64,000 bases of DNA from Candidatus Azambacteria bacterium (GTDB lineage: Bacteria > Patescibacteriota > Minisyncoccia > UBA10092). Positions 28,947 to 31,559 of this stretch are shown here, one piece after another. A program made the translations under genes and the position numbers. The notes beneath the pieces are model-generated. The model ran no database searches and was not told the origin of the DNA. It worked only from the letters and a program-made list of their open reading frames with translations. Every line of letters starts with the position of its first letter. Positions within the stretch are counted from its first letter, which is position 1. The stretch is taken from positions 14,203-78,202 of the forward strand of contig JACRAJ010000001.1 in assembly GCA_016213445.1 (NCBI GenBank). The letters are read 5' to 3'.

Positions 28947-31559
28947 CTACTTTTTCAATTTCTGAACCGGCGATTTCGACTCTTCCGAAACCGGCGCTTC
29001 GCTTCTGTTTTGCGGCGCCGGCGGAGCGACGCCGAACAGGGCGGGCTTTCCGGCTTTGAGATTGGCGATAATTTTTTTCACCTCGTTGTTGTCCGGGTTC
29101 AGTTCGGAGATTTTCAGGAACTGTTCTATTGCTTTGTTCCTGCCCTCCATAGCTTCAGCGGAGGAGGGTTTAAATTGCTGACTTTCCCTATCATATATCA
29201 ATCCCAAAAAATATCGCGCGTTCGAATAATTCGGGCTAAGTTCGACGGCTCTTTCCAACACCAGTTTCGATTCGTCGAACCTGTCGCTCTTATAATACAA
29301 AAACCCCAATTGGAACAGAGCGCCGACATCGGCATTGTTGGCAACCACCAGTTCCTCGGCGCGTTTTACGGCATCGGCCAATTTCCCCTGCCTGTCATAA
29401 ACCTGAACCAGCAAGAAACGGGCCGGCGCGTAATCATTCTTAAGTTTTAAAGACTGTTCAAGATTGGAAACGGCTTTGTCCAAATAACCGTTAACGGTTT
29501 CCGGCGCCGCTTTTTGGTTGGCCGCCAAATCGGCCAGGGTGATTTCAACCCTTGCCAGCGCCAGATAATTCGAAGGGTTTTGCGGATCCAGAGACACCGC
29601 TCCGCCGTAAGCGGAAAGCGCGAAATTGGCGGCATCGGCTATGTATGGAATCAGATTCTCGTAAATGCTCCCCAACAAAACGCCGTTCGCGGGATTTTGG
29701 GGATTCAAAATCTGCGCCTGCTTCGCCGCCGCGATGGCATTCGCGGTGATATTTTGAAACTGCGCCCTCATCGTTTCCTGCGGCAAATCTTTTCTCGACA
29801 GCAGATCGTTCAGCTGGGAAAAAATGGTTTTGGACAAATTTTGGAAATACCGTTCGTCATATTGCCAAAATTTAACGGCCGAAACATAATCCGCTTTCGA
29901 AAAATAAACTTCGGCGATATAGCGGTTGGTTTCAAAATAAAATCCGGCGGCCGCGCCGACCATCAACACCACGATTAAAAGAGAAAATAAAAATATTCTT
30001 GGCGGCGAGGTGAAAAGCCTTATTTCTTTAAACGACGAAGCAGCTTGCCTTGAGCTTGTCGAAGCGGCCAAAAAAATTCCAATGCCCCAGAAAGTAAAAG
30101 CCATAACCGTGAAATTGGCGGCGTAAAGGAACCACATAATGAAAAGAAAACAAACTCCCACAAACATTGATTGGGAAACCGCGTCAACGGATTTAGGGTT
30201 TCCGACACCTGTTAATAGGTGTCGGAAACCCTTAAAACCGGTCCGGACAAACGCGGCGATTAAAAACAACAGCGCCAAAATTCCGAAAATCCCAACCGCG
30301 CCGAGCCACGAAAACATCGCCGAAGAGCCGTTCGTAAAAACCGTCGACCAGAACACCGTTTGGTTAATCCCCACCGGCTTATAAAGATTGAAAATATAAC
30401 TGAAAGTATTCGGCCCCGAACCCAAAAGATAATGACCCGCTTTAAAATTGTTGAGCGCTATGTCCCAAGTGGCGCCGAAACTCGGCGAAACTTCAACCGG
30501 CGTCCGGATAAATTTTGAAAAAGGCGACGGAATAAAAATAAAAAACAAAGAAATCAAAAGAACAATTGAAGGCAGCCACGCTTTTTGAAAATACGCAATC
30601 TGCAATCCCTGACGTTCTGTGATTTCCGAAGTTGGGCGTTTCCCAAAATTCGGCATTTCTTGAAGTCCGACTTCGGGGATTTTTGAAGTCGGACTTCGGT
30701 CGAATTTTGGGAATCCCGCCGACAAAAAACTGATCATAGCCGCCATCGCCAAAGCCAAGCCGACCCAAATCGCCCAAAAATCAATAATGCAAAGATTTAA
30801 AATAAAAACGATGGCCGCCAGCCCCAAAAGTTTTTTGGCAAGCGGAGAAATTTCTCCGTCTTCGGCGGAAGACATCAGCCCGGAAACGATAATCAGCCCG
30901 AAAGCCAAAAGCGCGCCGACGGCGTTGATCGCGCCAACCGGATTGAATCCGGAATTTTTCGCGAAATCGAAAGGAAGAATGAATATTTTCAAGAGCTGTA
31001 AAAGTTCTAACAATCCTAAAATCGAAAGCGACGCCAAAAAAACAAAAAGAGAAATTTTAATGTCGCGGCGGTCGAACGTCGCCGCGATGGAAAACGCGAG
31101 AACCGCGAACAATAAAATCGAAAAGAAACTGTCGGGCGCCGCCCAGCCGCCGATCAGGCTTGTTATGCGACTGAAAGAAAAAAACGCCGACGCTCCCCAA
31201 ACCAAAACCAAAGCCGAAAGCGCCGCCGTAAAAATATGGCCGGGATAGCGAAATCTGCCTTCAATTAAAATCCTGCCGAGCAAAGCGAAAAAAGCGGTTA
31301 AAATCAATCCGAAAACCAAAATTTCCTTGTTGGCGGCAACCGGCAAGCCCGTAAAGGGCAAAAAGAATATCGGCGCGAGAGCCGCAAAAGCGATTAAAGC
31401 CCAACGGCTGACGGCGGACCAATAAGAAAGCGCTTTCGGCAATCCGACACGCACCGCCACTTCTTGGATTTTAGGGCGAGCGTCCGTCCAGCCAGAGACT
31501 GGTCCGCCTTGGGCGGAAAATTTTTCTTTTTCTTCAATTTTTCTTACGTTTATGTCCAT
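28947..31559 (-). CDS. O-antigen-ligase-like polytopic membrane protein with C-terminal TPR domain
   Basis: 870 aa with many TM segments, followed by clear TPR repeats (SPNYSNARYFLGLIYDRE..., LKLKNDYAPARFLLVQVYDRQGKLADAVK...). Paralogous architecture to 4770..6740. Carries three repeat-derived in-frame segments. Confidence 0.65.
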   Translation of the reverse strand: MDINVRKIEEKEKFSAQGGPVSGWTDARPKIQEVAVRVGLPKALSYWSAVSRWALIAFAALAPIFFLPFTGLPVAANKEILVFGLILTAFFALLGRILIEGRFRYPGHIFTAALSALVLVWGASAFFSFSRITSLIGGWAAPDSFFSILLFAVLAFSIAATFDRRDIKISLFVFLASLSILGLLELLQLLKIFILPFDFAKNSGFNPVGAINAVGALLAFGLIIVSGLMSSAEDGEISPLAKKLLGLAAIVFILNLCIIDFWAIWVGLALAMAAMISFLSAGFPKFDRSPTSKIPEVGLQEMPNFGKRPTSEITERQGLQIAYFQKAWLPSIVLLISLFFIFIPSPFSKFIRTPVEVSPSFGATWDIALNNFKAGHYLLGSGPNTFSYIFNLYKPVGINQTVFWSTVFTNGSSAMFSWLGAVGIFGILALLFLIAAFVRTGFKGFRHLLTGVGNPKSVDAVSQSMFVGVCFLFIMWFLYAANFTVMAFTFWGIGIFLAASTSSRQAASSFKEIRLFTSPPRIFLFSLLIVVLMVGAAAGFYFETNRYIAEVYFSKADYVSAVKFWQYDERYFQNLSKTIFSQLNDLLSRKDLPQETMRAQFQNITANAIAAAKQAQILNPQNPANGVLLGSIYENLIPYIADAANFALSAYGGAVSLDPQNPSNYLALARVEITLADLAANQKAAPETVNGYLDKAVSNLEQSLKLKNDYAPARFLLVQVYDRQGKLADAVKRAEELVVANNADVGALFQLGFLYYKSDRFDESKLVLERAVELSPNYSNARYFLGLIYDRESQQFKPSSAEAMEGRNKAIEQFLKISELNPDNNEVKKIIANLKAGKPALFGVAPPAPQNRSEAPVSEESKSPVQKLKK
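30194..30234. repeat. Back-to-back inverted REP doublet inside a CDS, in frame
   Basis: TAGGGTTTCCGACACCTGTT|AATAGGTGTCGGAAACCCTTA; translated as FKGFRHLLTGVGNPKS. Confidence 0.85.

Follow-up and report, generated by a model that had tools for sequence, protein, structure and literature searches.

A palindrome read in frame within a membrane-protein gene of Candidatus Azambacteria is probably a dimer of the genome's own REP

How can a long palindrome lie in the middle of a gene that is still open from end to end, and where does it come from? The question is raised by a stretch of 64,000 nucleotides from a Candidatus Azambacteria bacterium (contig JACRAJ010000001.1; the whole stretch is called the window, and position 1 is its first letter), in which positions 30194-30234, with the sequence TAGGGTTTCCGACACCTGTTAATAGGTGTCGGAAACCCTTA, fall inside a gene for a polytopic membrane protein. 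An original prediction, made from the letters alone, took the palindrome to be two repetitive extragenic palindromic (REP) units in inverted orientation, inserted in frame. The analysis presented here leads, with good though not full confidence, to the reading that the palindrome is a dimer of the genome's own REP, i.e., a compact REPIN (REP doublet forming a hairpin), which is tolerated in a loop between two transmembrane helices. The 15 residues that it encodes are specific to this lineage and take the place of a loop that had about 14 residues in the ancestor.

The inverted palindrome has the sequence that was predicted, and two descriptions of it agree. A repeat finder gives two abutting arms of 22 nucleotides (nt) each (30192-30213 and 30214-30235) that are 91% complementary, and inside these arms there is a perfect stem of 15 base pairs (bp), where 30196-30210 (GGGTTTCCGACACCT) pairs with 30217-30231 (AGGTGTCGGAAACCC) around the 6-nt loop GTTAAT. 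The arms are identical to each other even at a G that is not in the consensus of the repeat. The RNA of the 91-nt surround folds with -46.7 kcal/mol (z = -7.15), and the 53-nt core folds as single-stranded DNA with -21.9 kcal/mol for the plus strand and -21.1 kcal/mol for the minus strand (z = -10.3 and -8.2, respectively). An intrinsic terminator would have a T-run (U-tract) after its hairpin, and as neither strand has one here, the hairpin is not a terminator of this type. The open reading frame (ORF) 28947..31559 on the minus strand is, as had also been claimed, uninterrupted over 870 amino acids across the palindrome, where it reads ...FKGFRHLLTGVGNPKS..., or over a longer stretch ...RTGFKGFRHLLTGVGNPKSVDAVSQ... 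The gene has an identical sequence in the independent Logan assembly L001 of SRR12113407, and from this follows that the palindrome is not an assembly artefact.

The palindrome belongs to a family that is dispersed over the window. The family core is TAGGTKTCSGAMACCTA; when up to three mismatches are allowed, the 17-mer TAGGTTTCCGACACCTA has 20 matches in the window against 0.04 expected, and the 15-mer arm has 15 matches against 1.27 expected. Besides the two arms of the dimer there are units at 523, 6780, 11833, 11901, 16377, 17114, 17182, 20964, and 21033, and their consensus is approximately CAATAGGTTTCCGACACCTATTGA. One dimer arm equals this consensus over 17 contiguous bases, GGTTTCCGACACCTATT. 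Eight of the 11 units are intergenic, while the other three, at two sites (523 and the dimer), lie in ORFs. The host of the unit at 523-539 is the ORF 3..1094 (minus strand) for a GT4 glycosyltransferase, and the unit falls in the interdomain linker of this protein, which has two Pfam domains. Three inverted pairs have a 37-nt spacer (11833/11901, 17114/17182, and 20964/21033). These 97-bp pairs fold as long single-stranded DNA hairpins with -15.2 to -22.5 kcal/mol, to which the value of the in-gene dimer is comparable, and the folds of single units are weak (-3.6 to -6.4 kcal/mol). An early argument from a T/C mismatch in the commonest window unit, directed against the hairpin, was dropped, since the mismatch vanishes when two inverted units pair; imperfect stems are, moreover, normal for REPs (PMC6006769). 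This T/C "hybrid" form occurs in both dimer arms and is, among 60 aligned units from this and other genomes, restricted to the copies of the window genome, from which all six non-pairing cells at the internal 12/18 pair also come. The hybrid form of both arms argues for an origin of the dimer from the genome's own REP population. An Rfam search returned no family that covers the motif.

A candidate for the enzyme that mobilises the family is encoded 13 kb from the dimer, at 16407..17087, by the one RAYT-like transposase gene of the window, and this gene has copies of the repeat on either side (16377 on one, 17114/17182 on the other). Its product matches Pfam Y1_Tnp with E = 1.9e-7, its best NCBIfam match is REP_Tyr_transpos (REP-associated tyrosine transposase, RAYT), and residues H79, H81, Y139, N143, and P144 are invariant across 39 homologues. 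A sequence search of the PDB gave nothing better than E ~0.3, to ISDra2 TnpA, and was too weak, so that a fold search was needed. With the AlphaFold model (predicted local distance difference test, pLDDT, 83; a helical tail at 152-212), the top Foldseek match in the PDB is 4er8_A, the Escherichia coli RAYT with a REP hairpin (E = 5.3e-6, target TM-score 0.67), which ranks above the IS608 and ISDra2 TnpA structures; the sequence identity to 4er8 is about 10%. As judged from sequence motifs, the signature of the protein (NHYH, F118-Q119, YIHLNP, W172-S173-S174, 226 amino acids) matches subclass 2.1 of Quentin, the TIRYT group, which is defined by NH[YF]H / FQ / Y[IV]HLNP / SS tail and about 238 amino acids (PMC6006769, Table 1). 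Pfam reports only Y1_Tnp in the protein, and no C-terminal helix-turn-helix (HTH) domain of the types Bac_DnaA_C, HTH_23, or HTH_28. Dozens of homologues of the transposase come from contigs about 0.9 kb long, a length close to that of the gene with its flanking repeats, and this suggests assembly breaks at the flanking REPs or a multi-copy unit in some genomes.

The association of repeat and transposase recurs in other genomes. Exact matches to the 17-mer were collected from the species representatives of a genome collection (596 Gb); about 280 chance matches are estimated for a scan of this size, and single matches in unrelated phyla were therefore disregarded. The 17-bp palindromic core is found across Azam-, Giovannoni-, Moran-, Nomura-, and Saccharibacteria. 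Among the matches listed, homologues of the transposase with 40-73% identity have the 17-mer on both sides of the gene at five loci (L023, L065, L049, L061, and L040), and the loci that pair the motif with a homologue span Azam-, Giovannoni-, Moran-, and Saccharibacteria. Homologues with about 43-47% identity at L018 and L083 have copies of the motif beside the gene, and L018 also has one within it, while at L019 a partial homologue with 34% identity is on the same locus as a copy of the motif. In the Moranbacteria locus L018 the copy within the RAYT-like gene (7367-7383) is in frame and reads DVGVGHLRME, which places 4 additional residues directly ahead of the HUH motif, and a decayed REP copy is seen at the same place of the RAYT-like gene in L083, likewise from Moranbacteria.

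Whether the motif acts as a hairpin or as a set of base-specific contacts can be judged from the bases outside the core. The 60 units were aligned with 6-nt flanks on each side, which the search pattern leaves unconstrained. At the three innermost flank positions 58/60, 55/60, and 48/60 units are paired, and the covariation score of the flanks is 0.377 against 0.112 in shuffles (0/500 reach 0.377) and at most 0.10 in controls with slid partners. The foot of the hairpin, which in REP/RAYT systems is a 5' GT[AG]G tetranucleotide, is ATAG in the window genome, TTAG in Giovannonibacteria, and GTAG, with a 3' CTAC, in the Moranbacteria relatives. The flanks are thus complementary and yet different between genomes, which points to a hairpin element rather than to base-specific operator contacts. 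Taken together, the family core, the 17-base match to the consensus, the repeat-flanked Y1/HUH gene, the top match to 4er8, and the recurrence in Patescibacteria support the name REP that the original prediction had given to the units.

Copies of the family within genes are not confined to the window. Short-spaced dimers are found at L076 (inverted, with a 7-nt spacer, inside GatB), at L081 (7-nt spacer), and at L039, where the dimer is in a membrane-protein ORF and is placed right after a transmembrane helix, as in the window. Among the matches listed, about 21/64 sites in Patescibacteria loci are in ORFs by a crude criterion (at least 15 amino acids inside an ORF of at least 150 amino acids) that leaves a few assignments doubtful; as the sample of exact 17-mer matches in species representatives is small and biased, the high share is a lead and not a result. 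Hosts confirmed by Pfam are a Mur ligase, ComEC, DnaX, GatB, a class-V aminotransferase, GluRS, a radical-SAM enzyme, and ATP synthase beta, together with the GT4 glycosyltransferase of the window. The matched stretch is longer than the Pfam profile by 17 residues in GatB and by 8 residues in the Mur ligase C domain, which is about the length that a REP encodes, and some in-gene copies are without net length change (Aminotran_5 in L078). Individual copies in frame are those of L076 at 1778-1811 (GatB, the inverted dimer), L067 at 7510 (GluRS), L075 at 3683 (DnaX), L019 at 6188 (Mur ligase), and L038 at 6633 (ATP synthase beta), and those of L115 at 900 and L116 at 7658, which occupy orthologous positions of two genomes in ORFs with a DVGQGDS motif that we take to be ComEC-like. 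In other Patescibacteria the 17-mer in frame is translated as GVGHL, RCPTP, or VSDT.

What the dimer does to its host protein is seen from the position of the residues that it encodes. The host is distantly related to a Wzy_C/O-antigen-ligase-like paralogue (4770..6740), and its AlphaFold model has a mean pLDDT of 87.4. By hydropathy, residues 442-456 lie within a hydrophilic loop of 26 residues (439-464) between the hydrophobic segments 420-438 and 465-483, in accordance with the position between hydrophobic segments that had been claimed. The loop has four K+R and one D+E, and this net positive charge suggests a cytoplasmic placement. In the model the flanking helices are 423-449 and 460-478; FKGFRHLL prolongs the end of the former, and TGVGNPK with the residues that follow forms a turn before the latter, with a local pLDDT of about 69. 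Other repeat-derived segments fall in the remaining regions of low confidence (1-37, 285-320, and 501-510). Two such segments of the host gene had been named before, and both are confirmed: the palindrome TCCGCCCAAGGCGGA at 31503-31517 encodes SAQGG, which is part of a clean insertion of about 10 residues, SAQGGPVSGW, that is specific to the query in comparison with its orthologues, and the degenerate segment at about 30037-30066 is translated as STSSRQAASS, which lies in a different hypervariable loop.

The original prediction proposed an insertion of 14 residues, and with regard to this point the picture has to be changed. The host protein was aligned with 65 orthologues of 49-69% identity. 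The REP-derived residues are encoded by 0/65 of them, so the finding that had been named as a refutation, orthologues with the same residues, did not occur. Most orthologues, the most distant included, have a loop of similar length, with 14 residues in the orthologue consensus and 17 in the query between the same anchors (Table 1). When a loop of about 14 residues already exists in the orthologues, the event is best taken as a replacement of the loop, with a net change of about +3 residues, and not as a clean insertion. The paralogue 4770..6740, which had been suggested as a reference for the indel, is too distant for this use (22% identity). The centre of the dimer, GACACCTGTTAATAGGTGTC, is one base off from GACACCTATT joined to AATAGGTGTC, which is the product of a precise deletion of the 37-nt spacer in a 97-bp pair. 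The same loop contains unrelated palindromes in other orthologues, namely CCCTCCCT/AGGGAGGG and TCCCCCCT/AGGGGGGA in L122, TCCCCC/GGGGGA in L123, and CGACAT/ATGTCG in L005, from which follows that it has repeatedly accepted inserts of this kind.

A possible course of events can be outlined from these observations. The candidate RAYT-like enzyme would have placed the dimer by acting on single-stranded hairpin DNA. Alternatively, the dimer may have arisen from two successive REP insertions, or from a 97-bp pair that collapsed through loss of its 37-nt spacer. Whichever the route, the event would have removed or overwritten most of the old loop, and its main effects would be to give the loop a new peptide sequence and to provide both the mRNA and single-stranded DNA with a strong hairpin. 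Since the loop is short and variable and is probably on the cytoplasmic side, the insert would be tolerated and is probably neutral.

To see how far this account is to be preferred, consider the case that the motif is instead the operator of a dimeric transcription factor, so that the in-gene palindrome would be two abutting intragenic binding sites. The 17-mer is indeed a near-perfect palindrome with two 8-bp half-sites, intergenic copies in the window lie beside TTGAWT hexamers of -35 type, the gene that follows the pair 11833/11901 encodes a weak DeoR-like HTH, and the core is conserved in distant Patescibacteria. In the window as in the relative L002, the motif also lies upstream of the 16S rRNA gene, but its position relative to the 16S promoter is not the same in the two. 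The operator hypothesis was at first taken seriously, and was downgraded when the Y1 transposase between the repeats, the copies within ORFs, and the covariation of the flanks became apparent. A RAYT-like gene is flanked by the motif at no fewer than five other loci of Patescibacteria, roughly a third of the sites sampled are in frame within housekeeping genes (GatB, GluRS, DnaX, Mur ligase, ATP synthase beta), where operators are not expected, and outside the core the bases vary by genome yet stay complementary, which fits better with a hairpin. Because the transposase gene lies between the copies 16377 and 17114/17182, the REP reading is preferred, and an operator is considered improbable. 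Hardly any credence can be given to the idea of a DNA uptake signal that accumulates via biased uptake and recombination. It would agree with the many in-gene copies, of which some are without net length change (such as Aminotran_5 in L078), with inverted pairs beside terminators, and with the ComEC encoded by Patescibacteria. It is contradicted by the low density of about 11 units in 64 kb and by the constancy with which the motif is physically linked to a Y1 transposase gene, and flank covariation of the hairpin type is foreign to uptake sequences.

Two further explanations concern the in-gene palindrome itself. It could have formed by local inverted duplication of the loop through template switching, with a likeness to REP that is coincidental or due to later gene conversion. 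The arms are identical, including the non-consensus G, as if one had been copied from the other, and the net change of length is small; the DNA of the ancestral loop, GCTGTCAGGAATTCC, also has a weak likeness to arm 2, GGTGTCGGAAACCC. This likeness amounts to about 14/21 positions with one gap, which was judged not to be significant, and descent of the palindrome from ancestral loop DNA was rejected. It is, furthermore, very improbable that an exact match to the consensus over 17 bases and a genome-specific hybrid form would both arise by chance, and unrelated genes in other genomes also contain short-spaced dimers of the family that resemble this one. Local duplication is therefore a distinctly improbable origin. 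Retention of the hairpin for a function, be it RNase III or other processing, a translational pause for membrane insertion, or a switch based on RAYT-dependent DNA excision, is very unlikely. The 15-bp stem is perfect even though the foot has diverged, and this could reflect selection on pairing, but a recent origin explains the perfect stem equally well. The RNA hairpin is very stable and comes directly after a transmembrane helix, likewise in L039; in opposition to this, no orthologue has a conserved structure at the position, where the others have unrelated palindromes or none, and the U-tract is missing.

The reading of the palindrome as a dimer of the genome's own REP has its own difficulties, and several observations weigh against it. 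The outer foot is TAGGG in both dimer arms and ATAGG in the consensus of the family. The copy number is low, about 11 units in the window, and most of the intergenic copies are near promoter-like sequences, which would be compatible with a part of the family in regulation. The net change of about +3 residues is not explained by a simple insertion, and neither an empty site nor a closer relative was found: the best orthologue in the protein database has 69% identity, and the best from metagenomes have 64% and 55% (loop region). The transposase scores 37.2 bits against the 80-bit cut-off of NCBIfam NF047646, and no REPs were found next to subclass 2.1 genes in the survey of Quentin (PMC6006769).

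How, then, does the system compare with those already described? The original prediction held REPs to be normally extragenic by definition, which is too absolute a view, since both monomers and dimers of REPs have been documented in frame within genes (PMC3733652, PMC6006769). REPs of the GTAG/CGTC type lie within genes of Opitutus terrae, Rickettsia conorii (where they are Rickettsia palindromic elements, RPEs), Thauera, Xanthomonas, and others; more than half of the intragenic inserts are dimers or groups that encode 20-30 amino acids and are argued to be tolerated in linkers or loops, and these families go together with RAYT genes flanked by the same repeats (PMC3733652). With the REPs of Di Nocera 2013 the present family has in common that they are short palindromes, often dimers, in frame in proteins that look functional, and that they flank a RAYT. 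It differs in that the host is one of the Patescibacteria, that the dimer encodes 15 residues and replaces an existing loop, and that the foot is ATAG in the window and GTAG in theirs, as it is in the Moranbacteria relatives. The REPIN-RAYT systems (Bertels and Rainey 2011; 4er8) are alike in their HUH/Tyr transposase, in the repeat-flanked gene, and in the inverted doublets that fold into long hairpins; they have a single transposase copy per genome, and one copy is seen in the window. They are unlike in that the protein here is below the NCBIfam cut-off for RAYTs and has only about 10% identity to 4er8, that the core is common to several lineages of candidate-phylum level rather than specific to a species or genus, that the copy number in the window is low, and that REPINs are almost exclusively extragenic, whereas the in-ORF share here is far larger (the ~21/64 among the matches listed).

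Two subclasses of TnpA-Y1 are also relevant. In subclass 2.4 there are double-foot REPs, which can result from a central deletion of an inverted dimer, and REPs inserted in frame within the transposase genes themselves (Quentin 2018, PMC6006769). A foot with its complement at both ends (GTAGG...CCTAC) is likewise found in L018, L039, and L083, and in L018 a REP is in frame inside the transposase gene; the window protein, with NHYH, FQ, YIHLNP, and 226 amino acids, is different from the subclass, which has NH[IFV]H, WQ, YIxNNP, and 194 amino acids (PMC6006769). With subclass 2.1 and the TIRYTs the likeness is in motif signature and in length (226 amino acids here), by a comparison of motifs only. 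Some TIRYT-flanking repeats are self-complementary and moderately abundant (PMC3733652), while the window gene is flanked by dispersed palindromes and its product has no C-terminal HTH by Pfam. The repeat is probably unrelated in sequence to the RPEs. RPE-1 elements are about 100-150 bp long, and RPEs are not known to be tied to a flanked RAYT gene. They resemble the family as palindromic repeats that lie in frame in ORFs with host products that remain functional, and RPE-1 elements have been described as "longer palindromic insertions" (PMC3733652), while the dimer here has 44 bp. Lineages of the candidate phyla radiation (CPR) are not mentioned in the surveys PMC3733652 and PMC6006769, and no paper linking RAYTs or REPINs to Patescibacteria was found in the searchable literature. 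The type of event is thus already known in other bacteria, while a REP/RAYT-like system in Patescibacteria is apparently undescribed; what is new here would seem to be the lineage and the high in-ORF share of the family among the matches listed.

Table 1. Repeat units and associated genes in the window, and the loop of the host protein between conserved anchors
Feature	Position	Strand	Remarks
Probable REP dimer, compact REPIN-like palindrome (44 bp)	30192..30235	.	Coding (-) strand gives F442-K456 (FKGFRHLLTGVGNPK)
Host gene, 870-residue polytopic membrane protein with C-terminal TPR repeats	28947..31559	-	Intact ORF
Loop, orthologue consensus between anchors			TGI-AGTAVRNSSRGIMN-VASQ, 14 residues
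Loop, query between anchors			TGF-KGFRHLLTGVGNPKSVD-AVSQ, 17 residues
RAYT-like Y1/HUH transposase, 226 amino acids	16407..17087	-	Motifs NHYHLML and YIHLNP; candidate mobilising enzyme of the repeat family
REPIN-like inverted pair	17112..17200	.	Units 17114-17130 and 17182-17198, 37-nt spacer; directly upstream of the transposase gene
Single REP unit	16377..16393	-	Directly downstream of the transposase gene; with 17112-17200 a REPtron-like arrangement
REPIN-like inverted pair	11827..11923	.	Units 11833-11849 and 11901-11917, 37-nt spacer; intergenic
REPIN-like inverted pair	20964..21049	.	Between the terminator of the rpoC-like ORF (21093..24701) and the 16S rRNA promoter region
Single REP unit	6769..6807	.	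Core 6780-6796, extended 16-bp stem; upstream of paralogue 4770..6740
In-ORF single REP unit	523..539	.	TAGGTTTCGGAAACCCA; WVSETYK in frame, residues 185-191

Some further repeats of the window deserve mention. At 10885-10920 the palindrome ACGGGTGTCCGAT / ATCCGACACCCGT has the half-sites of the REP, GGGTGTC and GACACCC, around a 12-nt centre, and may be a diverged or rearranged member of the family. A second family of palindromes, TCCGCC-nnn-GGCGGA, occurs at 31503-31517, 1245-1302, and 54385-54426 and within the ORF 31893..37232; its intergenic copies are terminator-like, and the peptide FSAEGGPASVW in the neighbouring ORF of 1779 amino acids looks like this family read in frame. Repeat-like peptides, STSSRQAASS and SPTSKIPEVGLQEMPNFGKRPTSEI, are seen in hypervariable loops of low pLDDT in the host protein (29997-30066 and 30600-30700; residues 499-510 and 286-320), and the rpoB-like ORF 24838..28221 has segments of similar appearance, RQATGDKF, RQAASDK, and SFAKATEGE. 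Long perfect palindromes at 17232-17275 and 19063-19114, with arms of 22 and 26 bp, have AACAAC(C/T)CCCGCAAG abutting CTTGCGGG(G/A)GTTGTT in common, and may be a small family of their own, of the kind of bidirectional terminators. Nested direct and inverted repeats of ATGCGGCCATCTTGCGGCCA fill 11117-11207, at the 3' end or downstream of the HTH-containing ORF 11196..11846. At 18490-20749 tRNA-Ile and tRNA-Ala stand downstream of a 16S rRNA gene; since no 23S rRNA comes after these, and the next downstream gene encodes an MscS-like channel, the rRNA operon appears to be split.

Outside Patescibacteria the identical 17-mer is multi-copy in some genomes, with loci from Chryseobacterium MAG14 (L014, L015, L017, L021, L030, L047, L053, L064, L093, L101, and L109) and from Aquimarina, Chloroflexota MAG278, and MGRG01. 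The Chryseobacterium locus L110 encodes a protein weakly homologous to the transposase (26% identity, E = 3e-11). The 17-mer family may therefore extend beyond Patescibacteria, or may have been exchanged. L114, which is binned as Nanoarchaeota, has the same ATP synthase beta context and in-frame REP as L038 of Patescibacteria, in samples that share a naming prefix, and its assignment is probably a binning error.

For the host gene itself little is altered: the sequence of one turn between two transmembrane helices is new, and the protein as a whole still appears intact. In a wider perspective, it is possible, though on the whole doubtful, that Patescibacteria have long had a REP system that is inherited for the most part vertically and driven by a Y1 enzyme of the subclass 2.1 type, with copies that are unusually often in frame in loops of essential genes. 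If this were true, REP insertion would be a regular source of loop variation in CPR proteins, and the dimer described here would be one instance of it. The repeat family in itself explains odd lineage-specific peptides of CPR proteins (GVGHL, RCPTP, FRHL, and others) as translated repeats, and suggests a reason for the commonness in CPR assemblies of contigs of about 0.9 kb with only a transposase gene. Annotators and those who predict structures have cause for caution, because loops of low confidence in these proteomes appear often to be repeat-derived.

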